Source: an uncultured Acidobacteriota bacterium (lineage in GTDB: Bacteria; Acidobacteriota; Terriglobia; Terriglobales; Acidobacteriaceae). From it: DNA of 64,000 nucleotides. The stretch's first letter is position 1; each line of letters begins with the position of its first letter. Location: NCBI GenBank assembly GCA_963817925.1, contig CAWFQN010000001.1:11311-75310 (forward strand). Reading direction: 5' to 3'. The notes under the pieces are model-generated. The model worked only from the letters and a program-made list of their open reading frames with translations. It ran no database searches and was not told where the DNA came from. Shown here in pieces: positions 6,995 through 62,220 of this stretch. Position numbers and translations under genes: made by a program.

Positions 6995-7108
6995 CGGGAC
7001 TGGCGTGAGATGGTACATGGCCGATTTCTTGCAAAGCAGGAGAAAAGCACCGGGTCTTTCGTAATCTCCCGCCGGAAGCGGTCGGAATGAAATAGTCGAG
7101 CGTAGCGT

Positions 7109-7531
7109 ATGGTCAAAGCTTCCTCGGTAAACGCCACGCCTCGGGCGCCGCGGGTGAAACTCGCAGGCACTGTCCTGTCGCTGGTCCGTTTAGAAAACGG
7201 GCGGCAAACTCGAGGAAGACTGCACCAGCTCTCGATCACGGGCGGACTGCTGCATCTGGAGACGCCTCTGGATGAGGGGATCAAGGTCGAAGTGATCTTC
7301 CACGTGGGCGAAAGCACCGTGCGCAGCAAGGCACGCATGCTGTTTCCGATGTGGGCGACACAAGGCTATCTTCAGCCCTTCGAATTCGACGGCTTGGACG
7401 ACGAGGACCGGTGCAATTTGCAAGTCGATTTGCAACGACTGCTGGATTGCTCGGCCGCAGCGATTGTCTCCACTCCAGCGGAGAATACCGAACTCCCCAC
7501 GGATGCGAATCAGTGGTTGAAGTCCACCTGA
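7109..7531 (+). CDS. PilZ domain protein
   Basis: 140-aa ORF with PRAPRVKL (RxxxR) and QLSITGGLLHL (xxSxxG) about 30 aa apart, followed by a beta-rich segment. Confidence 0.6.
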   Translation: MVKASSVNATPRAPRVKLAGTVLSLVRLENGRQTRGRLHQLSITGGLLHLETPLDEGIKVEVIFHVGESTVRSKARMLFPMWATQGYLQPFEFDGLDDEDRCNLQVDLQRLLDCSAAAIVSTPAENTELPTDANQWLKST

Positions 7532-46670: not shown

Positions 46671-48119
46671 TCACCGTCCGGCGAACGCGGTAACAGGCGC
46701 GTCGGCGCCTGCCTTCGATGAAACTTTAATTTCTGATTCGATTTGTTCAACCAGCTTGCGAAAACGTTGCTCGAATACGTCTTTGTTCTTGTTTGCGGTT
46801 CCGCCAATCCAAAGCGTCAGTCTGCCGCGGGCATCGCGTACGGGCACGGCCCACACGCGTACATGGATGAAGTAGAAGACCACGGCCAGGCCGAAACCCA
46901 TGACGAGCACGCCCGCCCAAACCGACCACTGCCCGGGTTCGTGCGAAACTTCCAAACCGGTGAAGTAGGCCATCTGTACGTCTTTGCCTTCGAATGTGTA
47001 CGGCGAAGCCGCGTTCTCCTCAAGGCCGGGGATCGGAGGCAGCCAAACGTTTACGGCCTTGCCCGAGTTCCTGGATTCGACCACCAGGTGCGCGGCGGGA
47101 TTTTCAAGGTCGCCGGAGCGGGCATAAATCTGACCGTCGCGCAGCACATAGTCGGGAATGAACTCGGCGAGGCGAACCGTAGTGTCAGAGTCCAGGGGGA
47201 GGGTCTCGTCCAAGCCAATCGTGATGTCCTTAGGGGCGTTACCATCGCGTGCAGTCGCGGTGAGCACAAGTTTGTCGATCTTTCCGGTCTTCCCGTAGCT
47301 CGCCTGATAAAAGCGTACGCCCTGATAAACCAGGGGATCGTTGACGACGATCTGCTTGCTCACGACGACGGTCTGTCCGTTGTCGACGATCGCCAGATCT
47401 GACCACCAGCGTTTGGGAGTGCCGTCGGTATAGTTCTCCTGACCAGCGCCGTCGCAGCGGATGGCAAAACCCAGGTTGCGTTTGCTCCCGTTTTGGGTCC
47501 GCACCTGGCTCGATTGCTGTCCGCGAGTCAGAGTGACGAATGCACGCCAGCCGTAAAGGGCGTCGACGATGCCACCGAGAAAGATGAGAAGCAGACTCGC
47601 ATGCACGATATAAACCGACATTTCCGAAAAGCGATTGCGCTCGCCGAAGAGGGAAAAGCTGTTTTCGCGGACAATCCGCTCGGGGCTGAAACCTGCCTTG
47701 TGAAAGACTCGCTCAGCGACGCTTAACCCGGTTTCTTCGTCACTGATCGGAATCGCGGCCTGCGTCGCCAGCGCCTTGCGGAAGGCATCATCAGGACTCT
47801 TATAAGGACGTGCGTAGTGACGCCATGAGTTCGGGAAGCGCTGTATGGATGCGACGATGATGCTGAGGCTCACCAGCACTAGCAGCGTGACGAACCACCA
47901 GGCATGGAAGACGTCCGTCAAGCCGACTCCATCCAGCAGGCGCAAAACCTGGGGCGAATAGGCTCTCTGCATTTCATCCGCATCGGTCGCAGGACGCTGC
48001 AGAATCACCGTCCCCGCTGCCGAAATGATGACGACGAGAATGAGCAGAACAACGCCAGTCTTGATCGCGCCCAGGGTTTGCCAGGTTTTTCGGGCTGCCG
48101 AGTGAACGGATGTCGCCAT
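46671..48119 (-). CDS. resB: cytochrome c biogenesis protein ResB/CcsB
   Basis: Trimmed to ATG 48119. Starts MATSVHSAARKTWQTLGAIKTGVVLLILVVI. Has a large periplasmic domain and a C-terminal TM, and lies directly upstream of ccsA. Confidence 0.85.
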   Translation of the reverse strand: MATSVHSAARKTWQTLGAIKTGVVLLILVVIISAAGTVILQRPATDADEMQRAYSPQVLRLLDGVGLTDVFHAWWFVTLLVLVSLSIIVASIQRFPNSWRHYARPYKSPDDAFRKALATQAAIPISDEETGLSVAERVFHKAGFSPERIVRENSFSLFGERNRFSEMSVYIVHASLLLIFLGGIVDALYGWRAFVTLTRGQQSSQVRTQNGSKRNLGFAIRCDGAGQENYTDGTPKRWWSDLAIVDNGQTVVVSKQIVVNDPLVYQGVRFYQASYGKTGKIDKLVLTATARDGNAPKDITIGLDETLPLDSDTTVRLAEFIPDYVLRDGQIYARSGDLENPAAHLVVESRNSGKAVNVWLPPIPGLEENAASPYTFEGKDVQMAYFTGLEVSHEPGQWSVWAGVLVMGFGLAVVFYFIHVRVWAVPVRDARGRLTLWIGGTANKNKDVFEQRFRKLVEQIESEIKVSSKAGADAPVTAFAGR

Positions 48120-48586
48120 ATCTTCCTCTTCCCCATTTGGCGAAAGCACGTTTTGCGCCATTGCTGAAAATTCGGCGAAGTTGCTGAAATTTCTGGCAAT
48201 GAGTCAGATCGGTTGGAAAACAGCGAGCTCGGTTTGAGCCATATCACACAGCAGATTGGACTTCCGTTGGAATTTGGCGCACTCTCCTGGTAACCGGTGT
48301 AGAAACATTTCAGCAATCTGATTTACCGGCCGATAAGCAACACACGGCGTGGTGACTTGGGTCATTTGGTCCATTTCACTGTGGGAGAATCCCCATTGTG
48401 ATGAACCTTGCAACAGTCTCGATTTCTTACAGATGCGAGTTCAGTTCCCAACTGATTTTGTTGCAATCTGTTAGAAGACTTGCTCCGAAGCTTGCTTCAT
48501 TGAAGAAATAAGGCGAGATGCGTGCACTGGCGAATGAAGAGACGATAGTGGGTGTGACGTTGGAATTATTCAAATCGAGTCCGAGT

Positions 48587-50011
48587 ATGACTCACAGAGT
48601 AAGAGCGCTGGCCTGTTTCATCGTGGTGCTCATCCTGACTGGCCGCGTCTACGCTGCGAAGCATCCTGTCCCGCTTGACCCGAAGGCGGACACTTCCACC
48701 TGCCTGGCCTGCCATGAGGACAAGACCAAAGGCAAGTCGATCCATTCGGCGATGGCTATGGGCTGCACCAGTTGCCATGAGATCCGGGTAAATAAAGACA
48801 TCACTCGGGTAAAACTGATCACGACCACGCCCCTTGCCCTTTGTCTGACCTGCCACGCCGACAAAAATGCCGCCGACATAAAAGGTACGGTCCATCCTCC
48901 GGCAGTTCGAGACTGCGTGAAGTGCCACGATCCGCACTCCTCGGACTATAAGAATCAGTTGTTGAAGCCGACCTCGGGGGATCAGAAAGAAAACCTCTGC
49001 CTCAGCTGCCATACGACCGGGCTGAATGTGCCCGAAAAAGGCAGCCGCCATGCCGCCCTCGACATGGGCTGCGACACATGCCACGTTACGCACAAAACGG
49101 GGGAGATCGGCAAGGCTGAATTCGATTTTCATCTCACCAAGGCGCCGCCCGCCCTCTGCATAGATTGCCATGACGTCAAGGGTGCGGACCTGCAGAAGGC
49201 GCACCAGAATCAGCCGTTCGAAACGTCCAATTGCGTGAGCTGTCACGATCCCCACGCGTCCGCAGCTCCCAAGCTGATGGCAAAATTCACCCATCCGCCA
49301 TTTGCCGATAAGCAGTGCGAAGTCTGCCACGCCCCGGCCAAGAATGGAAAAGTGGTGCTGACGCAGGCCGATGCCAAGGCGCTGTGCGTGACCTGCCATG
49401 ACGATAAAGCCAAGTTAATCGAGACCGCCAAAGTTCAGCATCCAGGAGCGGCGGGCGACTGCACTGATTGCCACAGCCCACACGCCAGCAGGCAGCCCGG
49501 ACTTCCCAAAACGAACACAGTGGATATCTGCCTGGGCTGTCACAGCGACATCGCGGACCAAGCCAAGAAACCGGTCCACCACCAGCCGGCGTTCCGTCAG
49601 GGTTGTGCTACCTGTCATCAGCCACATGGCGGCGACAACGATCATTTGCTGCGCGCCCAGACGCCGAACGCACTTTGCCTGGAATGCCATGGACCGGAGA
49701 GGCAACCGAAGAAGCTGGAGGGTCAGCCTGTGATCACCATCTTCAACGGAAGTGTGAAACTTCCCGACGACTATTTCGCAAAAAACAAGGTCGTGGTTCT
49801 ACCGCTGAAATTCGGTATGGGACACCCTGTGGCGGGACATCCCGTCTCTGACTTGCTGGATCCAGCAGACCCGACCAAAGTGAAAACACCGATGAGCTGC
49901 CTGACCTGCCACCAGCCGCACTCCTCGGCTCAGCCCGATTTGCTGGTGAAGGATCAGGCCAACAACATGGCATTTTGCTCTACGTGCCACAAGGATTTGA
50001 AAACGCGATAG
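48587..50011 (+). CDS. 16-heme c-type cytochrome (c3/c7-like repeats), secreted
   Basis: Trimmed to ATG 48587. Has a signal peptide, and I count 16 CxxCH motifs in about 450 mature residues, with recurring CxxCHDPH and CLTCH units. Confidence 0.9.
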   Translation: MTHRVRALACFIVVLILTGRVYAAKHPVPLDPKADTSTCLACHEDKTKGKSIHSAMAMGCTSCHEIRVNKDITRVKLITTTPLALCLTCHADKNAADIKGTVHPPAVRDCVKCHDPHSSDYKNQLLKPTSGDQKENLCLSCHTTGLNVPEKGSRHAALDMGCDTCHVTHKTGEIGKAEFDFHLTKAPPALCIDCHDVKGADLQKAHQNQPFETSNCVSCHDPHASAAPKLMAKFTHPPFADKQCEVCHAPAKNGKVVLTQADAKALCVTCHDDKAKLIETAKVQHPGAAGDCTDCHSPHASRQPGLPKTNTVDICLGCHSDIADQAKKPVHHQPAFRQGCATCHQPHGGDNDHLLRAQTPNALCLECHGPERQPKKLEGQPVITIFNGSVKLPDDYFAKNKVVVLPLKFGMGHPVAGHPVSDLLDPADPTKVKTPMSCLTCHQPHSSAQPDLLVKDQANNMAFCSTCHKDLKTR

Positions 50012-50032
50012 GCGCAGTTAGGAGAAACTTCG

Positions 50033-51289
50033 ATGTTTTCCATTCGACCAAACCCGACGCGCAGGGGCCAGCGGTTTCTGGCTTTGCTTGTTCTTTTGGG
50101 CCTGGGGCTGGGATCGCCGGTCTCCGTGTTCGGAGGAAAGAAAAAGCCGGCCGACACTGCAGCTCCGAAGGCGCCGCCAGTGATCGACTATTCCAATATC
50201 GTTTGGCCGAATCCGCCAGCAATCGCCCGCATCAAGTACCAGGCGTTTTATGCGGCCGAAAAAATCTCCCAGGTAGACAAGCCCAACACCAAGAAGCAAA
50301 CCTGGATGGACCGGCTCGCGGGCACACAACCCTCCACCGACAATACCAAAGTTCTCTTCCAACTCGCAGAGCCTTATGGCATGGCGGTGGATTCAAAGGG
50401 CAACCTCTATGTCGCCGACCAGAAGGTGGGCGCTATCTTCATCTTCAACACGGAAACCCGGGACGTTGAGCTCATCAAGAATAAAACCCACGGGCACTTC
50501 GTTCGCATCATCGGTTTGGCGATGGACGACAATGACCGCCTGTTTGTCTCCGACCCTGGTTTGCGTCATGTGCTGGTTTTCAACGCCAAACACCAACCCG
50601 AGGACGTAATCACTGATGGATTGGTCGAACCGGGTGGGCTCGCCATTGATACCGAGAACCGGCTTCTTTATGTTGCTGACGTCGACCAGGATCAGGTTCT
50701 GGTTTACGACGCTGACACTCTGAAGCTGAAGCGGCGAATCGGCACCGGCGGGCACAAACACGAACTTACCACGCCCGGAGATTTCGCCCGGCCGGGGGGA
50801 TTGGCGGTCGACCGGGACGGCAATCTCTACGTGGCCGACTCCCTCAACAACCGTATCGAGATCTTCGATGGCGACGGCAAATTCATCAGTACGTTTGGCA
50901 AAGCCGGCGACGGCCCAGGATATTTCTCGCGGCCCAAAGGGGTTGCCATTGACAGTGATGACCATATCTGGGTGGTCGACGGGATGCAGGATCGAGTGCA
51001 GGTCTTCAATCAAGACGCCCAGTTGCTCATTAGCTTCGGCGGCCATGGACTTCTTCCCGGCATGTTCCAAGGGGTGGTCGGCATCACGATCGACAAGGCA
51101 AACCGCGTTTTCACCTCGGAGATCTTCCCCGGACGAGTCCAGCAATTCCGCTACGTGACCGACTCCGAGGCCGATCAGTTGCGCCAGCAGAAAGACGCAT
51201 CGCGGGAAAAGAAGGCTGGCGTATCCAACAACGAAGTGGTTCCGATAGCGGATCCTGCGATTCAGGCACAGAGTCCGCAAAGCAAATAG
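50033..51289 (+). CDS. NHL-repeat beta-propeller protein 1, secreted
   Basis: 418-aa ORF with AGGAG RBS and a signal peptide. Carries six NHL-type units (P.G.AVD..GNLYVAD..N.RI..F). Confidence 0.85.
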   Translation: MFSIRPNPTRRGQRFLALLVLLGLGLGSPVSVFGGKKKPADTAAPKAPPVIDYSNIVWPNPPAIARIKYQAFYAAEKISQVDKPNTKKQTWMDRLAGTQPSTDNTKVLFQLAEPYGMAVDSKGNLYVADQKVGAIFIFNTETRDVELIKNKTHGHFVRIIGLAMDDNDRLFVSDPGLRHVLVFNAKHQPEDVITDGLVEPGGLAIDTENRLLYVADVDQDQVLVYDADTLKLKRRIGTGGHKHELTTPGDFARPGGLAVDRDGNLYVADSLNNRIEIFDGDGKFISTFGKAGDGPGYFSRPKGVAIDSDDHIWVVDGMQDRVQVFNQDAQLLISFGGHGLLPGMFQGVVGITIDKANRVFTSEIFPGRVQQFRYVTDSEADQLRQQKDASREKKAGVSNNEVVPIADPAIQAQSPQSK

Positions 51290-51717
51290 AGTCACCTCGG
51301 CGAGACGATTCTCGACGCAAATCAGCTCTCGAGGGTGTCGCTGTCGCACATGATGGCCGACCGGGCCTTCTGCAATTTCCTGCTGTTGCGTTTCTCAACA
51401 CAATCGCTTCAAGTGCAGGTTCCAGCATTGCGTTGATTCAAATCCGATTGCGGAATTTAACCAACAGTAACGAAGGCATTGGTTCTTTTCCCCCAGCAGT
51501 CCTCTTTCCCAGTTTGGGACGGAATGGGATGATATTGCACTTAACATCATTGTAATCAAATACGTACATCGAATCTCCGCAACACTGGCGACGTCTCTGG
51601 CTTCGGTTGGACAGTTGCATAACCCAGAGCAGGGGGCGGTTGCAAGGAGTTGCAGCCCGGGCCTAAGCCTCCAAGGGTTTTAGAGTTTTGCAATTAAACG
51701 AGGAGGTTTTTACTTAT

Positions 51718-52635
51718 ATGAAAAAAGTAATGTTACTTGCAATCTTCGTTCTTGCCGTTACGGGATTGATGATGGCCCAAAACTGGTCGTCAACGGTCGA
51801 CGTGCTCGGCGCGCATAACAATCAGGGCCGCGGCTGCGCGGGCTGCCATGCTCCGCATAGCGGTTCGTTTGGCTCCGGTCACGGCGGCGCAGCAGACGCT
51901 GGCAGCTATGCATTATGGGGCCAGGATGCCAGCCCACTGTATGGCCAAACCATTAAGTTCGGCGACAATGGGCAATACGTTGAAGTTCTGCCCACCAGCA
52001 TCACCAGCGGCAGCACTGAAGTCGGCGGCATTTTGCTCTGCCTGAGCTGCCACGACGGCAACCTCACCGCCTCCAACATGATGACCAATCAATCGTATGA
52101 ACAAAAGATTGGCCTCTTGACCAACACCACGTACGGCAGCAAGCCGATTCCAACCCTGCTTGGCAATGATGGCACGACCGCCGGTAATTACACCAACGAC
52201 CATCCGGTGGGCGTCAATGCCAACATCAGCACGACTCAGCCTGGCTTGGTCTGGGCGGCCGGAAAATTCACCGTCACTCCAGGAAGCCCGTATGCGCAAT
52301 TCGTAGCGAATTACGGTTGGCCGGCTCTGGCGCCTGGAAAGTGGTCCACCCCATACGGCGTCAACAGCGCTGGTCTTCCCTATGTGGCCTGCACCACTTG
52401 CCACAACCAACATGTCATGACCGTTTACACGTCTTCTGCCAATAGCCAGATCCGGAATGACGGCGGCGGCAAGTTCTATGCCACCTACTTCTTCGTGAAC
52501 GGCCCCTACAACCCGAACCTTCAGACCTACGCCAGCACTTCGGCACCGTCGACGACACAGTTCTGCCGTCAATGCCACTTTGGCGAAGCGAATGAGGCTA
52601 ACAACACCAACACCATCACGACGCAATTCCAGTAA
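51718..52635 (+). CDS. secreted tetraheme c-type cytochrome
   Basis: ATG 51718 follows GAGGAGG. Signal peptide MKKVMLLAIFVLAVTGLMMAQ. Four CxxCH motifs: CAGCH, CLSCH, CTTCH, CRQCH. Confidence 0.9.
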   Translation: MKKVMLLAIFVLAVTGLMMAQNWSSTVDVLGAHNNQGRGCAGCHAPHSGSFGSGHGGAADAGSYALWGQDASPLYGQTIKFGDNGQYVEVLPTSITSGSTEVGGILLCLSCHDGNLTASNMMTNQSYEQKIGLLTNTTYGSKPIPTLLGNDGTTAGNYTNDHPVGVNANISTTQPGLVWAAGKFTVTPGSPYAQFVANYGWPALAPGKWSTPYGVNSAGLPYVACTTCHNQHVMTVYTSSANSQIRNDGGGKFYATYFFVNGPYNPNLQTYASTSAPSTTQFCRQCHFGEANEANNTNTITTQFQ

Positions 52636-52652
52636 AGACGGTTTGAACCCAA

Positions 52653-52681
52653 GGGGAGAGACTTATCTCTCCCCTTTTTTC
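52653..52681 (+). terminator. strong intrinsic terminator after the tetraheme gene
   Basis: GGGGAGAGA-CTTA-TCTCTCCCC forms a perfect 9-bp stem, followed by TTTTTT. Confidence 0.85.
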
Positions 52682-52703
52682 TGAGGTAACGAGCGAGGAA
52701 TTT

Positions 52704-53732
52704 ATGAAATACAAACTCTCAATCTGGATCCTGCTAGTGGCGGCGACCGCCGCAGCTCAAGTTGCCTCTCATACTCCAACCAGCGTGGGGACGCCGTCCG
52801 CGACTGCTTCTCCCGTATCACCTTTGCAGGTGAGCGATAAGCCGGTGGCGCGGGTCAATGGGGCGGTGCTGACGGACCGCGATCTACTGCGTGAGATGTT
52901 TGCCATCTTTCCGTATGCCAAGCAGCACAACGGATTTCCCAAAGCGCAGGAAGCCTCCATCCGCCAGGGTGCGCTCGAGATGATCATTTTCGAGGAACTC
53001 GTATATCAGGAAGCTGGCCGACGGAAGTTGACAGTTTCCGCTGCGAGCCTGAACCGCGCCGAGGCTGATTTTCGCAAGCAGTTCAACAGTCCCGATGAAT
53101 ACGAACAATACATGCAGACAGAGATGCACGGTTCCCGCCAGGTGTTGCGCCAGCAGATCCAGCGTTCGCTCCTGATCGAACAAGTGTTGAAAACTGAGGT
53201 GGAAGACAAAGCCACTGTATCGCCGACCGAGGTCAAAGCCTATTACGATAAGAACACAGCACGCTTCGAGCAACCGGAGTCATTTAGCATACAAAGCATT
53301 TCCATTCTTCCTCCCCGAAATGGCAACGTTACCCCGGAGATAGTGAACGAAAACCGTAAACGCGCAGAAGACGGGCTGCGCCAAGCCAAGGCGACGAAGA
53401 GCTACGAGGAATTCGGCTTGCTGGCGGAAAAAATCTCCCAGGACGATTTTCGCGTCAACATGGGCGACCACAAGGCCGTAGGGCGCGATAAATTGCCACC
53501 CCAGATCGTGAAGGCGGCGCTGACGATGCAGGCGGGACAGGTCAGCGGATTGATCCAGATTGAAAACGCGTTCACAATTTTCCGGCTGAATGCACACAAT
53601 CCACCCGAAAAGCAGAGCTTGGCGGACGTCAAGGCTAACCTGCAAACGGAATTGCAAAAGCGCAAGTATGAACAGTTGCGTTCGAATCTTGCAAAGAGCC
53701 TTCGCGCCAAGGCCAAGATCGAAATCGTGTAA
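52704..53732 (+). CDS. SurA/PrsA-like periplasmic chaperone with parvulin-type peptidyl-prolyl isomerase domain
   Basis: 342-aa ORF with a signal peptide, a SurA_N-like region (VARVNGAVLTDRDLLRE) and a PpiC-like region (FGLLAEKISQD...GQVSGLIQIENAFTIFRL). Confidence 0.75.
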   Translation: MKYKLSIWILLVAATAAAQVASHTPTSVGTPSATASPVSPLQVSDKPVARVNGAVLTDRDLLREMFAIFPYAKQHNGFPKAQEASIRQGALEMIIFEELVYQEAGRRKLTVSAASLNRAEADFRKQFNSPDEYEQYMQTEMHGSRQVLRQQIQRSLLIEQVLKTEVEDKATVSPTEVKAYYDKNTARFEQPESFSIQSISILPPRNGNVTPEIVNENRKRAEDGLRQAKATKSYEEFGLLAEKISQDDFRVNMGDHKAVGRDKLPPQIVKAALTMQAGQVSGLIQIENAFTIFRLNAHNPPEKQSLADVKANLQTELQKRKYEQLRSNLAKSLRAKAKIEIV

Positions 53733-53992
53733 CGCCTTGCCGCGATGAATAGCGCCCGTGCCTGCCTCACGCAGAGGTGGCTGGCCGCGCCTCACGGGAC
53801 CTCGCTCAAGTCGAGCCCCGTTTATCGTCTCCTCTCCGGTTTTCGAGGGTCCCATTACATGTTGAGTTATTAAGCACGCCGCTCGGGTTATATGGCGCAG
53901 CCCGAGCTAGCAATGATCGTCAGGTGTTTGCCATGGAACACATAACAGTCTTTGTTTCAACAGTTTATCTGCTCCCACCACACTGCCGAGAG

Positions 53993-54007
53993 TGGCACAA
54001 AGTGTGC
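53993..54007 (+). promoter_or_regulatory. candidate sigma54 -24/-12 promoter (also a GGCACA/TGTGCC palindrome) upstream of the OMP gene
   Basis: TGGCACAAAGTGTGC, i.e. TGGCAC-N5-GTGC with correct GG-N10-GC spacing. Lies 62 nt before ATG 54069. Confidence 0.45.
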
Positions 54008-54068
54008 CTTCAGTAACAGCATCTGGCCGGACTAGTGAGGGAGTTCAGGGGTGGAAGGAACTGGCACA

Positions 54069-55901
54069 ATGACGAGGTTGGCGGCGGGCATTGTTGGGCT
54101 GCTCCTTGTGATCGTAATACCGCTGGCCCGGGCCCAAGTGCAGATTGGAGACAACCTCCAGATGAAGGCCGGCGGACTGCTCACGGTGGGGTACCAGGGA
54201 GACTACGGAGACGATATCCAATCGAGCCACGGACTAAACTTCGGACTTAACGGCAACGTCTCCGGCTCTTATTACAATCCTAGCTTCCTCTCCTTCGACT
54301 TCACCCCCTATTACAATCAGTCACAGGCCAATTCCAACTTCCAATCGTTGACAGGCGCCAGCGGATTTACAGGGACAGCCAATCTTTTTACCGGAAGCCA
54401 TTTCCCAGGATCGGTCAGCTATCGCGACGACTACAACAGCACCGGCACTTTCGGACTTCCGGGTCAACCCGACTTCACCACTCACGGCCACGGGCAGGGC
54501 TTCGGCATTGGATGGAGCGCACTGATTCCGGGCTTGCCCACTCTGTCAACCAGCTACTCACAGGGCAGCGGATCCGGCACTGTGTACGGAACCAATCAGG
54601 AGACTGGTTCTGATACGAAGCTGTTCAATGTGAGGTCTACGTACGCGATAGAGGGTTTCCACCTGAACGGTTTCTACGATCACAACACTCTTCACTCCAC
54701 GTACCCGGAATTCCTGGCCGGTGAGCAGGAATCGGTATCGGACACCACTGGCCACGATTTTGGTTTTGGCGCGAACCGCAACTTGCCGATCAACGGCTCC
54801 TTCTATGTCAACTACACCCGCTCAGAAGCAACTACCGATTTTCAGGGACAAGCGGACAACACGACCAACTATACGACCAGCACCGAGACCTCCGGCGCTA
54901 CCATCCGCCCTCTCCAAAAGCTGAGCCTGTTTGCCAACGAGAGCTACACCGACAATCTGTCGGGCTATTTTAACCAGAACCTCATCAACACCGGAACGGT
55001 GCAGACACCCTTCAATTTCGGATCAGGCTCAAGATCATTCACGGTGGGTGGAGGCGCTACTTATCAGTTCACCAATTACCTGTCCACGCAAGCACAGGCC
55101 ACTTATTACGATCAATACTATTTTGACAAGAGTTACACCGGGACTTATATCACCGGCACGGTGAATTATGCACGCAGGCTCTTCGACATGTTTACCTTCT
55201 CCGCGGGCGTAGTGGAGGAGTCCAATGGCCAGGGCAGCAACTCGGTGGGTTTCATCGGCAATATGAATTATTTTCGTAGGATCAAAGGTTGGGAGACTTC
55301 AGGTTCATTCAGTTATGCCCAAAACGTGCAGTCAATCTTAGTCACCTATACATCCTCTTACTACAACTACAGTGCCCGGTTGCATCGCCGCTTCGGACAT
55401 GGCTTGGCGTGGATCGCGAGCTTTAACGGCAGCCACAGTGGTCTGACAAATCAACCGGGCAGCAATAATGACAGCAAGAGCTATTCCACTTCCTTCAGCA
55501 TGCGCCGGTTCACCTTAACCGGTAACTATACGCAGGCAAGTGGAAACTCGATTCTCACAAATGCCGGGCTGGTGCCGCTTCCACCGACGCCTGGGGTGCC
55601 GGCGAGCGATCTCATCATTTACAACGGGGACAGCTATGGCGGCGGGCTTTCCGCGACGCCTCTGCGCCGGCTCACGCTTTCGGCAACCTACAGCCGCGCT
55701 CTCAGTAACACGCTCGGCAACACGACGAATTCGCACAATAATACGGAGATCTTCAATGCTCAGATGCAATACCATCTCAGGAGAATTGGCCTGCTAGGCG
55801 GCTTTACCAGGTTCAGTCAGAGCATCAGTGCGGTCGGCATTCCTCCGGGAACCGCGAATTCGTATTTCATTGGAGTGTCCAGATGGTTCGATTTCTTCTG
55901 A
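54069..55901 (+). CDS. outer-membrane beta-barrel protein (porin-like, about 20+ strands)
   Basis: Signal peptide MTRLAAGIVGLLLVIVIPLARAQ. Rich in Gly, Ser, Thr, Asn and Tyr, with alternating hydrophobic dyads throughout. C-terminus ...YFIGVSRWFDFF ends in an aromatic residue. Confidence 0.75.
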   Translation: MTRLAAGIVGLLLVIVIPLARAQVQIGDNLQMKAGGLLTVGYQGDYGDDIQSSHGLNFGLNGNVSGSYYNPSFLSFDFTPYYNQSQANSNFQSLTGASGFTGTANLFTGSHFPGSVSYRDDYNSTGTFGLPGQPDFTTHGHGQGFGIGWSALIPGLPTLSTSYSQGSGSGTVYGTNQETGSDTKLFNVRSTYAIEGFHLNGFYDHNTLHSTYPEFLAGEQESVSDTTGHDFGFGANRNLPINGSFYVNYTRSEATTDFQGQADNTTNYTTSTETSGATIRPLQKLSLFANESYTDNLSGYFNQNLINTGTVQTPFNFGSGSRSFTVGGGATYQFTNYLSTQAQATYYDQYYFDKSYTGTYITGTVNYARRLFDMFTFSAGVVEESNGQGSNSVGFIGNMNYFRRIKGWETSGSFSYAQNVQSILVTYTSSYYNYSARLHRRFGHGLAWIASFNGSHSGLTNQPGSNNDSKSYSTSFSMRRFTLTGNYTQASGNSILTNAGLVPLPPTPGVPASDLIIYNGDSYGGGLSATPLRRLTLSATYSRALSNTLGNTTNSHNNTEIFNAQMQYHLRRIGLLGGFTRFSQSISAVGIPPGTANSYFIGVSRWFDFF

Positions 55902-56989
55902 GAGAACGATTCGCGGGACGGTTGCAGTGGGCTTTTACCGTTGCCGGTCTTGTCGTATTGCTGGGCATGCCGGCGGTCGCCGGCAAACCCTCCAAAACGA
56001 CTGCTGTCCAGCCCGCTCCCCCGGATTTGCTGCTGGACGGCGGACGGAAACTGACGTTTGAACGCAGCTTCAGTCTGGAGCGCGAAGTGAAGCCGAAGCG
56101 GAGCTTCTGGACTCGTGTGGTCGACGTCATCGCCGGTGAACCAGACTTCCACTATCTGGTCAGTCCCTACAGCATCGCAACCGATTCGCACGGACGAGTC
56201 ATCGTAACCGACCCTGGAGCCGACGGAATTCACATCTTCGATTTCACCGAAAAGAAATACAAGTTTCTCTCCCGCAAGGACAGCGGCAAGGATCCGATGC
56301 TGTCGCCGCAATGCGTTGCGGTGGACGCGCAAGACAATATTTATGTGACCGATTCGCAGGCGGGAAAGATTTTCGTTTTCGACGTCAAGGGGAAGTTCCG
56401 GCATGTGATCGGCGGCCTGAAAGGCGGAGAAGGATATTTCAAACGTCCCACTGGAATCGCGGTCGATTCTGCGGCCCAGCGCATTTACATCACGGACACC
56501 TTGCGTAACAAGATTTTTGTAATGGATTTGCAAGGCAGCGTGCTGGCGACGATTGGGAAAACGGGTACGGGCGAAGGCGAATTTAATTATCCGACGGAGT
56601 TGCGGCTGAGTGGTCCTGAGTTGTTCGTAGTCGATGCCATGAATTTTCGGGTGCAAGTCCTTGACCGATCCGGCAGCTTTCACTATGCCATCGGGAAGAT
56701 CGGAGACTCTAAGGGATCGATGTTCCGACCCAAGGGGATCAGCTTCGATTCCGAAGGACATCTTTATGTCGTAGACGGCCTCTGGGGCATCGTGCAGGTA
56801 TTTGACCGGGAAGGCCGGCTTTTGTATTACTTCGGGCAGCGTGGAAGCGGACTGGGAGATTTCCAATTGCCGACCGGACTGCAAATTGACAACAACGATC
56901 GAATCTATGTCGTGGATTCCTTCAATCGCCGCATCGAGGTATTTCACTACTACGCGACCGCAAGAGCCGTTGACGGGGGCAAGCAATGA
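55883..56989 (+). CDS. NHL-repeat beta-propeller protein 2, secreted
   Basis: 368-aa ORF whose start overlaps the OMP 3' end by 19 nt. Has a signal peptide and six NHL units (GIAVDSAAQRIYITDTLRNKIFVMD etc.). Confidence 0.85.
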   Translation: MVRFLLRERFAGRLQWAFTVAGLVVLLGMPAVAGKPSKTTAVQPAPPDLLLDGGRKLTFERSFSLEREVKPKRSFWTRVVDVIAGEPDFHYLVSPYSIATDSHGRVIVTDPGADGIHIFDFTEKKYKFLSRKDSGKDPMLSPQCVAVDAQDNIYVTDSQAGKIFVFDVKGKFRHVIGGLKGGEGYFKRPTGIAVDSAAQRIYITDTLRNKIFVMDLQGSVLATIGKTGTGEGEFNYPTELRLSGPELFVVDAMNFRVQVLDRSGSFHYAIGKIGDSKGSMFRPKGISFDSEGHLYVVDGLWGIVQVFDREGRLLYYFGQRGSGLGDFQLPTGLQIDNNDRIYVVDSFNRRIEVFHYYATARAVDGGKQ

Positions 56990-58899
56990 GGTGGATCTTG
57001 GCCTCCGCTTGTGTAGTGGTTCTGGCTCAAAGCTTTGCCAATGCGCAAGTCATCACCGGAGATGTGATGGGCATGCATAACCTGTCACCCCCCAGCGGAG
57101 CCTCGGTGTATTCGCAGGGAAGCCTCGGCTGCACCTTCTGCCACGCTCCGCATAGCGGACTGGGAGGAGCATCTCCGTTATGGAACCAGACATTGTCGAA
57201 GTCGACCTATACTCCGTATTCCAGTTCAACCTACGTCGAGCGAGGCAACACCCAGCCCACCCTCGGAGTAACCAGCAGTCTGTGCCTGAGTTGCCACGAC
57301 GGCACGGTCGCGGTAGGACAGTCGGCAGCTTATGGCACCCTCCCTATGACGGGCTCGATGAACAGCATCGACTCCTTTGGGACGAACCTTGGTGGCACCC
57401 ATCCCTTCAGCCTGCTTTTGCCGATGAAGGACGCCTCCAATCTGGTGGCTTCATTAGTTTCGCAGGGCAAGACGGCCGATCCAACCGGGGCCGTGAAATT
57501 GATTAAAGGGAATATCGAGTGCACCAGTTGTCACAACCCGCACGTGCAGGGCACGGATAAGGTCGCGCAGGATTTCCTGGTCCGCGACAGTTCCAGCGGC
57601 CAGATGTGTCTCGCCTGCCACGATCCCAACCGGATCATTCCCGGACAGCCGAACCCGCTTGTGGGCTGGACGAACGGTATACACCAAACGGCAACCAACC
57701 AGCCAGCAGCCAATGCGCATGTGGGTTCTTACAGCACGGTTGCCCTCAATGCTTGCTCTTCCTGCCACATGGAGCATGACGCAATGGCGCCAGCACGGCT
57801 GCTTCGGCCGGCCAACCCGCCAGCACCCGGCACCGACAATGCGACCCAGGATTGCATGACTTGTCACAGTGGCGGAACGCTGCTTGCGCCAGCGGCTCCG
57901 AATGTCATGGCTGAGATCGCTAAGATAAGCCATCCTCTGCCTGCGGGAACCAATTTTCACGACGCAGCCGAAACCGCTGTGCTCAACAACAATCGCCACG
58001 CCACCTGTGTGGATTGTCACAGCGCTCACGGATCCAATCAGGTGGTCACATTTGCTGCCCCTCCCGCGATTCGCCCCTCGCAGGCGAACCTGACCGGCAT
58101 CAGCGCGACGGACGGAGTGACGGTTCTGCTTCCGGCCCTGAACCAGTATGAGAACTGCCTGCGCTGTCACGGTACGAGCGTAGGAAAACAAAGATTGATG
58201 ATTTACGGATATGCGCCGACGAGAATAGTTTCAGCGCCGGATCCCCTGAACGTGATTCCGGAATTCAGCGCGGCCGCAACCTCGAGCCATCCCGTCACGC
58301 ACGACAGTCTGAGCCCGTTGCCGCAGCCTAGCTTGCTCACGAACATGCTGAATCAGAATGGCACGGCAGGGCGCTTGATGGGTGTCCGGATTTTCTGCAG
58401 CGATTGCCACAACAGCGACGACAATCGCGAGTTCGGTGGAATCGGCCCGAACGGTCCTCACGGTTCGGTCTACTCGCATATCCTCGAGCACAACTATCAA
58501 TTCAGCCAAGCCACCGTGCCCGGCGGACAAGTCACGAACCTGTTTCCCAATCCAGACGTAAGCCTCAATGGGCCTTATGGCATGTGCGCCAAATGTCATG
58601 ATCTGAACAAGGTTGAGGCTAACACTAGCTTTACGAAGCACAGCAACCACGTGTCTCAGGATGGCTTCTCCTGTTCCGTGTGCCATACTGCGCACGGCAT
58701 GGGTTCGATAGCTCCTGGGGTTTCGGGCGAACGCCTGGTGAATTTTGACATTAACGTGGTGGGGCAAAACAACGGCGCTCCAATCTCCTACAACCGCGGC
58801 AGCAATACCTGCACTTTGACCTGCCACCAGACCGCCCATAATGCCGATGGCTCAATCTCCAGCGCCCAAGGTTCCGGCCAACACGCGAGAAAAAAATAA
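56986..58899 (+). CDS. secreted multiheme c-type cytochrome (11 CxxCH + 1 CxxxCH)
   Basis: 637-aa ORF whose start overlaps the NHL stop as ATGA. Has a signal peptide. I count 11 CxxCH motifs plus a C-terminal CTLTCH. Confidence 0.9.
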   Translation: MRWILASACVVVLAQSFANAQVITGDVMGMHNLSPPSGASVYSQGSLGCTFCHAPHSGLGGASPLWNQTLSKSTYTPYSSSTYVERGNTQPTLGVTSSLCLSCHDGTVAVGQSAAYGTLPMTGSMNSIDSFGTNLGGTHPFSLLLPMKDASNLVASLVSQGKTADPTGAVKLIKGNIECTSCHNPHVQGTDKVAQDFLVRDSSSGQMCLACHDPNRIIPGQPNPLVGWTNGIHQTATNQPAANAHVGSYSTVALNACSSCHMEHDAMAPARLLRPANPPAPGTDNATQDCMTCHSGGTLLAPAAPNVMAEIAKISHPLPAGTNFHDAAETAVLNNNRHATCVDCHSAHGSNQVVTFAAPPAIRPSQANLTGISATDGVTVLLPALNQYENCLRCHGTSVGKQRLMIYGYAPTRIVSAPDPLNVIPEFSAAATSSHPVTHDSLSPLPQPSLLTNMLNQNGTAGRLMGVRIFCSDCHNSDDNREFGGIGPNGPHGSVYSHILEHNYQFSQATVPGGQVTNLFPNPDVSLNGPYGMCAKCHDLNKVEANTSFTKHSNHVSQDGFSCSVCHTAHGMGSIAPGVSGERLVNFDINVVGQNNGAPISYNRGSNTCTLTCHQTAHNADGSISSAQGSGQHARKK

Positions 58900-59133
58900 C
58901 TCCTCACCCCAGGGGCAAAACGCGCCCAGAGTGAGGATAAAGACCCGATTCGGGCCAGCCTTCTGACGTCAGCCGTCAGACTCGCTCCCTCACAAGTCGC
59001 TGAAATCAGGACCACAATCGGCCAGGCCGACCCAGGGTGTAGTTTTGGCAATGCCGATGCATTCCTTCTCAGGGGTGTTTGCGAAGCTTGCCCACAGGTG
59101 GGCCTCGGCAACGCGCAAAACGGGAGCTTAAGG

Positions 59134-59838
59134 ATGGCAGACGAACCGAATTTAGCCGTGACATCGAAGCTGAGCTGGCAGCCCCGGCAGTTATTAGTAA
59201 TGTGCGCTGTGTGCCTCGTATTGGGGTTTCTGGCGGGCTACTTTCTGAGAGGCTCGGCCTCCGCGCCGGCGCCGGCACTTTCGGCTGCAGCGCAAGAGAC
59301 TGGCGCCTCGTCTCACGCGACGAGCCAAGATACGGGACCAACGACGCAGCAGATGCCAAAAGAAGCACCCACTTTGGACGACCTGAAGCGCATGGCAGAC
59401 AAGAAGGCTGCGCCGGTCCTGGAGAAATTAAAGTCTGACCCAAAGAATCCGCAGCTGTGGAATCAGGTCGGACTGATCTACAAAAGTGCTCACCAATTCA
59501 AAGAGGCCGCAGGATACTTCGAGAAATCTCTGCAGTACGATCCGAAAGACCTGGGGGTGCGAGCCGACTACGCTTCTTGCTTGTATTATTCCGGCGACGT
59601 GGATGGAGCCCTCGCACAACTCAACCAATCCCTGGCTTACGATCCGAAGCACGCAGGCACGCTGATGAATATCGGCATCATCAAATGGAGAGGCAAGAAT
59701 GATGTCGATGGTGCCGTGGCTGCCTGGGAAAAACTGCTGCAATACCATCCCGATTTCCCCCAGAAAGACTTGGTCCAGCAGATGCTCACGCAAGCCAAAC
59801 AGGGCGTGAAGGTGGCTAACCAGGGACAAAAGGGATAA
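59134..59838 (+). CDS. TM-anchored TPR protein (paralogue of 36095..36763)
   Basis: I prefer ATG 59134 (MADEPNL..), which aligns with the paralogue. Shares CLVLGFLAGYFLRGSAS and the C-terminal GIIKWRGKNDVDGAVAAWEKLLQYHPDFPQK. Confidence 0.7.
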   Translation: MADEPNLAVTSKLSWQPRQLLVMCAVCLVLGFLAGYFLRGSASAPAPALSAAAQETGASSHATSQDTGPTTQQMPKEAPTLDDLKRMADKKAAPVLEKLKSDPKNPQLWNQVGLIYKSAHQFKEAAGYFEKSLQYDPKDLGVRADYASCLYYSGDVDGALAQLNQSLAYDPKHAGTLMNIGIIKWRGKNDVDGAVAAWEKLLQYHPDFPQKDLVQQMLTQAKQGVKVANQGQKG

Positions 59839-60042: not shown

Positions 60043-61755
60043 GTGGGAACTCGACCATCTGATGCTATGGCAGAACAGGTCACAGTGCTTGCTTCTACAG
60101 AAACCGAGCATGTTGCTTCCGGCTGGCGTGTTTGGGCGCTGCGCATTGCGATCACCCTCATTACTCCATTAGTGCTACTCGGGCTGGTGGAAGCAGCTTT
60201 GCGGATTTGCGGAGTCGGATTTCCCACCGATGTCACCGTTCCCTGCACCGTCCAGGGCCAACCTGCCTCTTGCTATAACTTGTTCTTCACCGCTCCGTTT
60301 TTCCCGCCAGGCATGATCAAGACGCCACAAATGTATGCCATTCCGACGGAAAAACCGCCCGGAACTTTTCGCATTATCGTCCTCGGAGAATCCGCAGCCA
60401 TGGGAGATCCCGAGCCGGCATTCGGATTCAGCCGATACCTGGACGTGATGCTAAGCGAACGCTATCCCTCCATGAAATTTGAGATTGTGAATACTGGCAG
60501 CGTCGCCATCAACTCGCATGTCGTGTTGCCGATCGCCAAAGGGCTGGCAAACTATCGTCCGGACGTATTCATTATTTACTCAGGCAACAATGAGGTCGTC
60601 GGACCGTATGGTCCAGGTACGGCGCTTACTTCTGCCGGGATGAGCCTTCCGATCATTCGTAGCAGTATTTTCTATCGTTCGACCCGCATTGGACAGCTCC
60701 TCACCAAGGTGGGCACGCCGAAAAAAGACTGGGGCGGGATGGCAATGTTTCTCGACAAGCAGGTTCGCGCCAGTGCGCCGCTCATGAAGTATGCTTACGC
60801 GAACTTCGCATCCAACCTGCGCGATACTATCGCCGTGGCTCGCAACGCCGGGGCTAGAGTAATCGTGTCCACCGTGGCCACGAATCTGAAGGACTGTGCG
60901 CCGTTCGGGTCTTTGCACCGTGAGGGTTTGGGACCAGATGCTTTGCGCTCCTGGTCCACCCTGGTTCAACAGGGAGCTGAGCAGGAAAATGCTGGCTCCT
61001 ACGCGGAGGCATTGAAATCGTATCGCGCGGCAGCGAACATAGACGACGAATATGCCGAACTCGCGTTCCGGATCGCCCGTTGCCTGGAGGCTCTCGGAGA
61101 CTACAACGCCGCGAGGGAATATTTTCTTCGTGCCCGTGAACTCGACACGTTGCGTTTTCGTGCTGATAGCAAAATCAATGACGTCAACCGCTCGGTAGCA
61201 TCTTCATCCGCGGCAGTCGAATTGGTAGACGCAGATGAGATCTTTGCCGAAGAAAGTCCAAACGGAATCATTGGTAGTGACCTCGTGTATGAGCACGTGC
61301 ACCTGGCTCCGAGTGGCAATTACTTGCTGGCTCGCGCCATGTTCCTTCAGATCGCGAAGCAGTTGCCTTCTGACGCAGGGCATCCACCTCAGGCTGAAGA
61401 CGTACCCACGCAAGCCGAATGCGAGCGTTTGTTGGCATTCACCAAATTTGATCGTTCCCGAGTAATCGCGGAGATGTTGCGACGGCTGCGAGAGCCTCCT
61501 TTCACGAATCAACTGAACCATTCCGATCAGATTTTGCGGTTGATGATGAAGGCAGACAATTCGGACGAAAGCCCCGATGACACAGTTGCGCAGTATCAAT
61601 GGGCGCTCGCGAGACGGCCAAACGACCGCATCTTACACTTCAATTACGGAGTCTTTCTTAACCAGTACGACCCCGCGGCTGCGGCTGCGCAGTTCGGCGT
61701 CGCGCGCCCGTGCGACGGATTCCCCCTGGTCACGCCTGACGGCACCGTGCATTAA
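60043..61755 (+). CDS. membrane-anchored SGNH/GDSL-like hydrolase with C-terminal TPR-like region
   Basis: 570-aa ORF with an alternative ATG at 60067. One TM, then FRIIVLGESAAMG and IIYSGNNEV blocks, and TPR-like AEALKSYRAAANIDDEYAELAFRIARCLEALGDYNAA. Confidence 0.6.
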   Translation: MGTRPSDAMAEQVTVLASTETEHVASGWRVWALRIAITLITPLVLLGLVEAALRICGVGFPTDVTVPCTVQGQPASCYNLFFTAPFFPPGMIKTPQMYAIPTEKPPGTFRIIVLGESAAMGDPEPAFGFSRYLDVMLSERYPSMKFEIVNTGSVAINSHVVLPIAKGLANYRPDVFIIYSGNNEVVGPYGPGTALTSAGMSLPIIRSSIFYRSTRIGQLLTKVGTPKKDWGGMAMFLDKQVRASAPLMKYAYANFASNLRDTIAVARNAGARVIVSTVATNLKDCAPFGSLHREGLGPDALRSWSTLVQQGAEQENAGSYAEALKSYRAAANIDDEYAELAFRIARCLEALGDYNAAREYFLRARELDTLRFRADSKINDVNRSVASSSAAVELVDADEIFAEESPNGIIGSDLVYEHVHLAPSGNYLLARAMFLQIAKQLPSDAGHPPQAEDVPTQAECERLLAFTKFDRSRVIAEMLRRLREPPFTNQLNHSDQILRLMMKADNSDESPDDTVAQYQWALARRPNDRILHFNYGVFLNQYDPAAAAAQFGVARPCDGFPLVTPDGTVH

Positions 61756-61773: not shown

Positions 61774-62220
61774 TTAATCCTGCGTTTTCATCTCAGCTTC
61801 GTGAACTTCTGAAGCCCTCATTTTTTCATCGATATGCCGTTGCACGCGCTCCCATTCTGAGCGAACCATCATTTCCTTGATTGTGAACTTGGTTTCGTGT
61901 TTCGCATCATCGACACGGACCGCCAGTTCGTTTTTGTGTAAACGGAAGTCGATGGTTTCAGCCAGCGGAATTAACTGATTGGACGACTTTCCCACGATGA
62001 CGAAGACGACGTTGTCCGACACCAGTGTGTACTCCGGGCAGGACTCCTGTTCCATCGGTGTCGAGGGACCGCCGAAGGCCACCATGAATCCATGGTGGGC
62101 GAGAATACAGTCGCCCATGTGCATCCTGACGACTGTGCCATGTTGATAGATTCCAGTTTGCGCCGTCAGCAAACCCGGCAAAGCGCAAAACAGTAACAGC
62201 AGCGAAAATGTTGGTTTCAT
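61774..62220 (-). CDS. secreted hypothetical protein
   Basis: 148-aa ORF with signal peptide MKPTFSLLLLFCALPGLLTAQ. Lies 9 nt downstream of the VWA gene. Confidence 0.5.
   Translation of the reverse strand: MKPTFSLLLLFCALPGLLTAQTGIYQHGTVVRMHMGDCILAHHGFMVAFGGPSTPMEQESCPEYTLVSDNVVFVIVGKSSNQLIPLAETIDFRLHKNELAVRVDDAKHETKFTIKEMMVRSEWERVQRHIDEKMRASEVHEAEMKTQD

Follow-up and report, generated by a model that had tools for sequence, protein, structure and literature searches.

The 64,000-nucleotide (nt) stretch of DNA analysed here (the window), part of contig CAWFQN010000001.1 from an uncultured acidobacterium, carries at positions 48587-59838 a cluster of eight genes, all on the + strand and named here g1 to g8, which we read as an OmcE-type extracellular electron-transfer module of a Terriglobales/Sulfotelmatobacter-like acidobacterium, made up of an outer-membrane electron conduit and an OmcE-like surface polymer. 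We put the probability of this reading at roughly 55%. A preliminary description of the DNA had listed eight co-directional genes with their heme counts, domains and overlaps, all of which we found at the coordinates it gave, and its view of a dedicated multiheme-cytochrome and porin module with maturation and chaperone genes of its own was confirmed at the level of domains. The relation it proposed to a cytochrome-filament system also held, as g3 and the N-terminus of g7 match the OmcE filament 9yuq; its choice of OmcS and the osc genes as the characterised relative did not, and the 4-heme protein that it had treated as merely one of three cytochromes proved to be of the OmcE family, with g7 beginning with a second OmcE module.

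The tetraheme protein g3 (51718-52635, +; 305 aa, four CxxCH; mechanical open reading frame (ORF) start at 51688) gave noise only when its single sequence was searched against PDB with phmmer. The profile of its family, built from an alignment of 30 full-length members, had 9yuq as its sole clear match in PDB (E=2.8e-10), the next cytochromes following at E values of at least 0.005, and it aligned the same motifs with OmcE of Geobacter sulfurreducens (7tfs) at E=0.35. The sequence of 9yuq is 100% identical to the OmcE annotated in Desulfuromonas soudanensis, whose filament-bundle structure has been described (bioRxiv 10.1101/2025.10.22.684050). In hhalign the g3 family and an OmcE alignment of 40 members matched at a probability of 99.5% (E=3e-23) over hemes 1-2, and BLASTP with the OmcE of a Geothermobacteraceae omcE cluster (L087) recovered g3 at 7.6e-9. 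The 30 aligned members of the g3 family have exactly four CxxCH motifs and four further invariant or near-invariant histidines, and also the motifs CxxCHxPH..LW, CLSCHDG and (N)DHP. The invariant residues of g3 (H33, C40/C43/H44, H47, C108/C111/H112, H162, C225/C228/H229, H232 and C283/C286/H287) have their counterparts in OmcE (H27, C45/48/H49, H52, C99/102/H103, H143, C186/189/H190, H193 and C212/215/H216), all eight cysteines and eight histidines corresponding in order. By this homology g3 is a member of the OmcE family, and it is the best filament-subunit candidate of the cluster, that is, a candidate major surface or filament subunit. Its composition points the same way, with 7.7% charged residues, similar to solved OmcE; g3 and g7 are both low in charge and rich in Ser, Thr, Asn and Gly, as are solved OmcE and the barrel g5, and g1, g2, g4, g6 and g8 are periplasmic-looking in composition. 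The C-terminus of g3 (52615-52635) is a separate observation: members of the family close with a conserved ...T-x-F, to which the close relatives add a Q. Such an ending is like the C-terminal signal of outer-membrane proteins and unlike the CxxCHxK with which OmcE ends.

The second protein related to OmcE is the 12-heme g7 (56986-58899, +), with 11 CxxCH motifs and one CxxxCH. Its single sequence also gave noise only in phmmer against PDB, and its family profile aligned positions 1-212 with residues 1-217 of 9yuq, end to end (E=6.8e-14). Residues 1-214 matched the whole g3 family in hhalign at 99.3% (E=5e-20), and the L087 OmcE found the N-terminus of g7 in BLASTP at 2.8e-15. Judged by these alignments, g7 is a fusion of a complete N-terminal OmcE module (residues 1-212, four hemes) and a C-terminal 8-heme extension. 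The latter, of about 425 residues, holds eight heme sites including the conserved CxxxCH, and nothing specific matched it in profile searches; a further OmcE module within residues 215-637 was considered and found unsupported, at an hhalign probability of 33%. Charged residues make up 10.6% of g7.

Searched against PDB, the g3 and g7 family profiles matched OmcE and did not match OmcS, OmcZ or MtrC. This bears on the idea that the cluster is an osc-type machinery, in which orthologues of OscD, OscE, OscF, OscG and OscH would assemble a wire of OmcS-like hexahemes. The osc cluster of G. sulfurreducens (Shen et al. 2025, as summarised in PMC13194489), in which OscH is proposed to fold OmcS, combines the gene of an extracellular cytochrome with those of a prolyl isomerase, a beta-propeller and a channel-like component of the outer membrane, a general plan that our cluster shares. 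This is a likeness of generic parts, an analogy at the level of domains; the subunit family here is OmcE-like and not OmcS-like, and no OmcS-like protein or 6-heme ORF was found in the 64-kb window, whose multiheme ORFs are g1, g3 and g7. We therefore disfavour osc-type machinery strongly, as the least probable of the explanations considered.

The conduit part of the module rests on g1 and g5. The 16 CxxCH motifs of g1 (48587-50011, +; alternative start 48518) fall into eight Paired_CXXCH_1 stretches in Pfam. The protein matched MtrA (6r2q_A) in PDB at E=1.5e-18, scored 187 bits against the DmsE family TIGR03508, under the cut-off of 192.2, and was 31% identical (E=1.7e-40) to the 19-heme protein of the L087 omcE cluster; with 22% charged residues, its composition is of the periplasmic type. 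By these matches g1 looks MtrA/DmsE-like, a paired-CxxCH rod. The g5 product (54069-55901, +; 610 aa, or 616 aa from a GTG at 54051) found no match in Pfam or NCBIfam. It ends in ...SRWFDFF, and the terminal Phe (usually as RWFDFF) is conserved in 77 of 78 orthologues. Its AlphaFold2 (AF2) model has 28 long strands at a predicted local distance difference test score (pLDDT) of 71, and the best Foldseek match of the model in PDB was MtrB (6r2q_B; E=4.6e-10, template modelling (TM) score 0.48, 10% identity), with 22-strand TonB-dependent receptors as runners-up; as modelled, g5 is a large outer-membrane beta-barrel with some likeness to MtrB. The likening of these components to porin-cytochrome (Pcc) conduits has some support, with a paired-CxxCH MtrA/DmsE-like cytochrome and a barrel whose best match is MtrB. 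The differences from MtrCAB and Pcc are that g1 has 16 hemes against 10 in MtrA, that g5 has 28 modelled strands against 26 in MtrB at about 10% identity, and that an outer cytochrome of the MtrC/OmcA family is missing from the cluster: the profile of that family, TIGR03507, did not match g7 and gave a partial match of 34.5 bits to g1.

A dedicated outer-membrane barrel, modelled with 28 strands, also speaks against the cluster being a redox enzyme or detoxification system of the periplasm with no part in extracellular electron transfer. Multiheme cytochromes do occur in nitrite, sulfite and hydroxylamine enzymes, and weak NrfB/NrfH-type profile matches were obtained from NCBIfam; all Nrf-type matches, however, lay far below their cut-offs, the cluster has no CxxCK catalytic-type motif and no enzyme domain, and the homology to OmcE is specific. 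We consider such an enzyme system very improbable.

The remaining genes of the cluster look like assembly and maturation functions. The two NHL beta-propellers, g2 (50033-51289, +; six-bladed, Pfam NHL and DUF5128) and g6 (55883-56989, +; Pfam NHL), are 30% identical to each other and 27-32% identical over their full length (27-30% for g2) to the propellers of two Desulfuromonadia omcE clusters (L086 and L087; BLASTP 1e-35 to 5e-53). Both carry signals of the signal peptidase I (SPI) type: g2 has no lipobox and no Cys at all, and g6 has one Cys, outside a lipobox, and orthologues likewise without a lipobox. Against PDB, g6 matched the NHL domains of TRIM71 and Thin at E down to 2e-53. The g4 product (52704-53732, +) has SurA_N_3 and Rotamase_2 (parvulin) domains in Pfam, and its closest solved relatives are the E. 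coli SurA entries 2pv3 and 1m5y (E about 1e-13 to 1e-14). The last gene, g8 (59134-59838, +; alternative start 59098), encodes one transmembrane segment and TPR repeats and scored 45 bits against TPR_CcmH_CycH (PF23914; cut-off 42); from this match it is a membrane-anchored TPR protein of the CcmH/CycH/NrfG type and probably serves as a chaperone for apocytochromes. The System II genes resB/ccsB (46671-48161, -; PF05140, 269 bits) and ccsA, the cytochrome c synthase (45243-46646, -; PF01578, 165 bits), which had been placed directly upstream, are indeed present and adjacent, but their strand is the opposite one, and an intergenic gap of 356-425 nt parts them from the divergently oriented g1. 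Within the cluster g5 and g6 overlap by 19 nt, and g6 and g7 by an ATGA.

We then followed the cluster through related genomes. One genome per species was scanned with an alignment of the barrel g5, which gave relatives in 240 species-level genomes; the counts of gene order below refer to the best 80 of these, against which every protein of the window was run with tblastn. All 80 loci come from metagenome-assembled genomes (MAGs) of soil, peat and permafrost, and 79 of them are labelled Acidobacteriota (Terriglobales, Ca. Sulfotelmatobacter, Acidoferrales and Korobacteraceae), in line with the acidobacterial host supposed in the preliminary description; a Terriglobales MAG encodes a protein 100% identical to g3 itself, and near-identical contigs are present in several assemblies, L001 among them. 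The one other locus (L054; DATJWZ010000871.1) is binned as 'Candidatus Eisenbacteria' and has the cluster, its g3 82% and its barrel 57% identical to those of the window, for which mis-binning or a recent transfer is a possible explanation.

The order g1-g7 is kept in 54 of the 80 loci, g3-g7 in 62 and g5-g6-g7 in 73, with the divergent resB/ccsA present as well in 48; loci without the full order are mostly those at contig ends or with assembly frameshifts. A histidine kinase gene next to ccsA-resB is retained in most of the related loci, and g8 is found in 27, the closer relatives. A distant version of the cluster (L090), with g3 37% and the barrel 39% identical to the window, keeps the order histidine kinase-ccsA-resB followed by cytochrome-NHL-tetraheme-isomerase-barrel-NHL-multiheme. 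With the order retained across the loci and in this distant version, the cluster is therefore conserved as a unit. Heme-motif counts are equally stable, at 16 in 57/57 orthologues of g1, four in 65/65 of g3 and 11+1 in 68/69 of g7, and an identity of this kind among orthologues means that the counts are not due to chance. Over 29 distant loci, g3 has a mean identity of 76.9%, the highest of the cluster's secreted proteins, against 59.5% for the barrel; ccsA has a mean identity of 81% in distant loci. The g3 family as a whole is large: g3 has about 5000 non-redundant homologues, and an exhaustive search gave a family of 370 clusters at 50% identity. In one instance (L089; GCA_037024635.1, 4583-13978) a distant g3 homologue, 36-41% identical, lies in another gene context: MBOAT, AMP-binding and PP-binding genes and one for a g9-like TPR protein precede it (g9 is the gene that follows g8 in the window), and a 934-aa cytochrome with Fn3_assoc and CHB_HEX_C domains follows.

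Conservation also guided the search for promoters. A generic sigma54 consensus scan of the window gave nothing above chance, and sigma70-type matches were at chance level, so two sigma54-type -24/-12 sites were accepted only on their position-specific conservation across loci. The first, CGG-N6-AGTTGCAT (GG-N10-GC), lies at 51604-51620 (+), 98 nt before the g3 start codon, and occurs once in the window; in 48 of 65 loci it stands 87-127 nt before g3, and these make up 48 of the 60 matches to the element across all loci. The second, TGGCAC-N5-GTGCC at 53993-54008 (+), lies about 60 nt before g5, and 69 of 79 loci have TGGCA-N6-KTGC ahead of this gene. Directly 3' of g3 stands a terminator-like hairpin with a T-run (52651-52682, +; 11-bp GC-rich stem, T6, -20 kcal/mol), and a GGGGAGAG..CTCTCCCC hairpin with a T-run follows g3 in 62 of 62 related loci, the letters of the stem being conserved while the loops vary. 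Taken with the sigma54-dependent regulator and the kinase nearby, this layout points to two transcription units under regulation, one of g3 that reads through into g4 and one of g5-g6-g7. Having a promoter and a terminator of its own, g3 is expected to be made in excess over the assembly genes, which would be the usual arrangement for a major structural subunit.

Next to ccsA, and overlapping it by 8 nt, is a sensor histidine kinase gene (44030-45250, -; HAMP, HisKA and HATPase in Pfam), followed by a sigma54-dependent NtrC-type response regulator (42482-43946, -) that is split by a frameshift into two overlapping ORFs. In the near-identical contig L001 the regulator is intact (481 aa; Response_reg, Sigma54_activat and HTH_8), and the split in the window stems from a 1-nt insertion near 43194 relative to that contig; unless the assembly is in error here, the gene is a real pseudogene of this strain. 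From their adjacency and from the sigma54-type promoters, we infer that this kinase and regulator control the cluster. A conserved imperfect palindrome, CACTGTGGGAGAATCCCCATTGTG, was found in the resB-g1 intergenic region (48377-48400, +) in an alignment of 12 loci; it is unique in the window, is followed downstream by a conserved TTGCAA block and may be a regulator binding site. Two further conserved blocks, TGG...TTTTCCCCCA in the g2-g3 intergenic region (51290-51600, +) and GCAGCCCG..GGCCTAAGCCTCC in the g3 leader, had no Rfam match, as was true of all of 42-64 kb of the window. Beyond g8 lies g9 (60043-61755, +), a transmembrane and TPR protein with a weak GDSL/SGNH signal in Pfam, which follows g7 or g8 in 49 of the 80 loci and whose membership of the cluster is uncertain; a 148-aa ORF (61774-62220, -) and a VWA-domain protein (62230-63198, -) beyond it are kept in closer relatives.

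Among characterised systems, the closest relative by homology is the Desulfuromonadia OmcE cluster (the GSU0618 region of G. sulfurreducens and that of D. soudanensis WTL), not OmcS/osc. The minimal omcE cluster has been described as OmcE, two multiheme cytochromes, two beta-propellers and a large barrel, beside resB/ccsB (bioRxiv 10.1101/2025.10.22.684050), so the layout of duplicated propellers and cytochromes, which the preliminary description took to differ from Geobacter layouts, is in fact that of the minimal cluster. For comparison we took Geothermobacteraceae/Desulfuromonadia loci around close OmcE homologues (L087, L091 and L092 among them), which encode a 19-21-heme protein, a propeller lipoprotein, an 8-heme protein, a second propeller lipoprotein, OmcE and a 738-785-aa barrel, adjoin resB/ccsA or purHDE and are followed by a methyltransferase gene and ffh. 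Shared with our cluster are the OmcE-family tetraheme with its four distal histidines and the motifs CxxCHxPH..LW, CLSCHDG, DHP and CxxCHxxH; two extra multiheme cytochromes (here g1 and g7), one of them a long paired-CxxCH rod at 31% identity; two NHL propellers (here g2 and g6); a large barrel without a Pfam match (here g5, with one gene between it and g3), a likeness of presence and not of orthology; and adjacent resB/ccsA, divergent in our case. The differences lie in the gene order and in the inclusion here of a SurA-like isomerase and a CcmH-like TPR protein, no isomerase gene being present in these Desulfuromonadia omcE loci. The propellers here have SPI-type signals and no lipobox, the barrel has 610 aa as against 738-785 aa and is without detectable homology, and the subunit has 305 aa as against about 210-230 aa. 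In our cluster the second OmcE module, that of g7, continues into an 8-heme extension, and the host phylum lies outside the five in which omcE-type clusters have been listed, Acidobacteriota not being among them (bioRxiv 10.1101/2025.10.22.684050). One of the comparison loci, L092 (JGI 3300037047), is a Geobacter-type omcE cluster with OmcE-like tetrahemes at 6679-7344 (221 aa) and 10001-10627 (208 aa), together with three propeller genes and then glycosyltransferases; with two OmcE-like genes in this locus, duplication of the OmcE module within one cluster is not unique to Acidobacteria.

The core g5-g6-g7 has a counterpart in the host's own order. A 'Porin-NHL-CytC' cluster of peat Terriglobales/UBA7540, named EET1, has been described and modelled as an Mtr-like complex, with core genes transcribed through peat profiles and an argued outward electron transfer to organic matter; its reported structural matches are MtrB for the porin (TM 0.48), 6XG7 for the NHL protein and OmcE 7tfs for the cytochrome (TM 0.70) (Fiorito et al., bioRxiv 10.64898/2026.05.27.727921). 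Compared by description and not by sequence, our cluster has the same porin-NHL-cytochrome order in the same bacterial order, an NHL protein that likewise matches 6XG7, an OmcE-like cytochrome and a porin whose best structural match is likewise MtrB at TM 0.48, and its relatives too occur in SPRUCE and Stordalen MAGs. The representative EET1 cytochrome has 13 motifs (seven CxxCH and variants) as against 11+1 here, and the available text of the preprint gives no account of a separate OmcE-family tetraheme, the isomerase, g1 and g2, ccsBA and the TPR protein, the promoters or the terminator. Our own results for g5, g6 and g7 coincide with those reported for EET1, which makes the g5-g7 core in effect a published one, and the earlier statement that such systems are essentially uncharacterised in the phylum is outdated. 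The cluster is an OmcE/uet-type cluster in Acidobacteriota (uet being the undecaheme electron-transfer system discussed below) whose core, matched by description, was published as EET1 in a preprint of May 2026.

The EET1 model also gives the most serious alternative to our reading, a porin-cytochrome conduit without a filament, in which g1 would stand inside, the g5 barrel in the membrane and g7 outside, in Mtr-like fashion as for EET1, and g3 would be a soluble periplasmic or loosely surface-bound tetraheme shuttle, OmcE-like folds being compact heme carriers. The genes g5-g6-g7 are the most strongly conserved unit (73/80), overlap one another, have a promoter of their own and correspond to the core modelled as an Mtr-like complex in the EET1 preprint; g1 is MtrA-like and g5 MtrB-like; a few genomes (L034, L037 and L061) have g3 at another place on the locus; and OmcE-like tetrahemes are common outside nanowire clusters (bioRxiv 10.1101/2025.10.22.684050). 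Yet g3 has an extracellular-type composition like that of OmcE, unlike the periplasmic-looking g1, and its separate promoter and terminator, as well as its conservation, the highest of the cluster, suit a structural subunit made in many copies. A barrel and a propeller gene nearby have been used as the operational criterion for nanowire-capable OmcE homologues (bioRxiv 10.1101/2025.10.22.684050), and g3 has both. We regard a conduit alone as possible, if rather doubtful.

In layout, as far as published descriptions allow the comparison, the cluster most resembles uet of Tenderiales, reported from Ca. Tenderia electrophaga and Gallionella (bioRxiv 10.1101/2022.05.06.490989; PMC9900912). According to the same work, uet comprises the tetraheme UetA, the isomerase UetB, the barrel UetC with 28 predicted strands, the c7 trihemes UetDEG, the cupredoxin UetF, the NHL proteins UetH/I and the undecaheme UetJ, homologues of which have 11-12 heme motifs, and it ends with CcsA, CcsB, an NrfG-like TPR protein and BatD/B/A VWA genes. 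By these descriptions our cluster shares the order tetraheme-isomerase-28-strand barrel (UetA-B-C = g3-g4-g5), an NHL gene followed by a cytochrome of 11-12 motifs (g6-g7), ccsA/resB, an NrfG-like TPR protein (g8) and a nearby VWA gene. It differs in that the c7 trihemes are not among the three multiheme ORFs of the window, no cupredoxin domain was found among the cluster proteins in Pfam, one NHL gene (g2) and the 16-heme MtrA-like g1 stand upstream, and ccsBA is divergent and not downstream.

Since uet has been proposed to serve electron uptake in cathode-oxidising and iron-oxidising hosts (bioRxiv 10.1101/2022.05.06.490989; PMC9900912), the same hardware might here work mainly inward, taking electrons from Fe(II), reduced humics or cathodes. 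The gene order closest to uet would agree with this, as would the naming of some relatives as 'Candidatus Acidoferrum', but our cluster lacks the c7 trihemes and cupredoxin of uet, Geobacter OmcE serves Fe(III) oxide reduction, and the peat preprint argues for outward transfer to organic matter (bioRxiv 10.64898/2026.05.27.727921). Proposals for the three systems accordingly point in different directions, namely uptake for uet, Fe(III) reduction for OmcE and reduction of organic matter for EET1, and because multiheme chains are reversible, sequence cannot decide the direction of electron flow. We hold a role mainly in uptake to be unlikely.

In the OmcE-type module that we favour, electron transfer would be built up as follows. 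System II (ResB/CcsA) and g8, in keeping with their domains, would act in the periplasm to attach heme to the three apocytochromes. By analogy with MtrAB, g1 would carry electrons across the periplasm and sit inside the 28-strand barrel g5, and g7 would lie on the outer face, its 8-heme C-terminal part contacting the conduit and its N-terminal OmcE module pointing outward. The tetraheme g3, made in excess, would most likely form a polymer, either a heme wire like that of OmcE or a layer on the surface, for which the OmcE module of g7 may be the seed or the anchor. Candidate natural partners are Fe(III), humic or particulate organic matter and other cells. The isomerase g4 and the periplasmic propellers g2 and g6 may fold, escort or scaffold the loop-rich cytochromes and the barrel, by analogy with osc and with OmcZ, for whose nanowire production a prolyl isomerase is needed, and the adjacent histidine kinase and sigma54-dependent regulator would control expression. 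A more specific version makes this a complete nanowire system, with g3 as the surface polymer and g7 as its anchor or initiator, the OmcE module of g7 replacing one subunit and donating or accepting the inter-subunit His-heme contact, and its 8-heme tail connecting the wire to the g1/g5 conduit; we offer this version tentatively, as a fairly unlikely one at present.

Several points weigh against the OmcE-type module as a whole. The homology of the g3 family to OmcE in hhalign lies mainly in hemes 1-2, and the C-terminal half of g3 matches OmcE by ordered motifs only. Similarity at the level of the fold is not established, because the heme-free AF2 model of g3, made from a 55-sequence alignment, is poor (pLDDT 62.8, with the N-terminal half below 50), and Foldseek found no match below E=3 for it in PDB, a result that at this model confidence is uninformative on an OmcE fold. 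Eight conserved histidines for four hemes would also be expected of a monomeric bis-His tetraheme, and OmcE-like tetrahemes are so widespread that not all of them need polymerise (bioRxiv 10.1101/2025.10.22.684050). The barrel g5 gave hhalign probabilities of 0.9% against the L087 barrel alone and 0.1% against four Desulfuromonadia omcE-cluster barrels, BLASTP of the L087 barrel against g5 returned nothing, and at these values we make no claim of barrel orthology. The similarity of the propellers to those of omcE clusters is no stronger than that to the eukaryotic TRIM71 NHL domain, and they are not lipoproteins, the Desulfuromonadia propellers having lipobox-type ...AC(S/A) signals. In some loci g1 and g2 are not beside the core, a frameshift breaks the regulator gene in the window, and the hosts are without exception uncultured MAGs, the members of the cluster being known from their sequences alone.

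In acidic soils and in peat, Terriglobales and Sulfotelmatobacter-like Acidobacteriota rank with the most abundant bacteria. If the OmcE-type module exports electrons to iron minerals or redox-active organic matter, it would give them a form of respiration in competition with methanogenesis within a very large store of carbon, as the EET1 preprint has argued for peat (bioRxiv 10.64898/2026.05.27.727921). The cluster extends OmcE-type systems to a sixth phylum and ties together three literatures that have been treated separately, on omcE clusters, uet and EET1. How OmcE wires are mounted was left open by the D. soudanensis study (bioRxiv 10.1101/2025.10.22.684050), and the g7 fusion of an OmcE module with an 8-heme extension is a concrete candidate for an adaptor between filament and membrane. 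Should g7 indeed anchor a g3 polymer, it would become clear how insulated cytochrome wires are fixed to the outer membrane and electrically joined to it, and there would be nanowires in one of the most abundant phyla of soil and peat.

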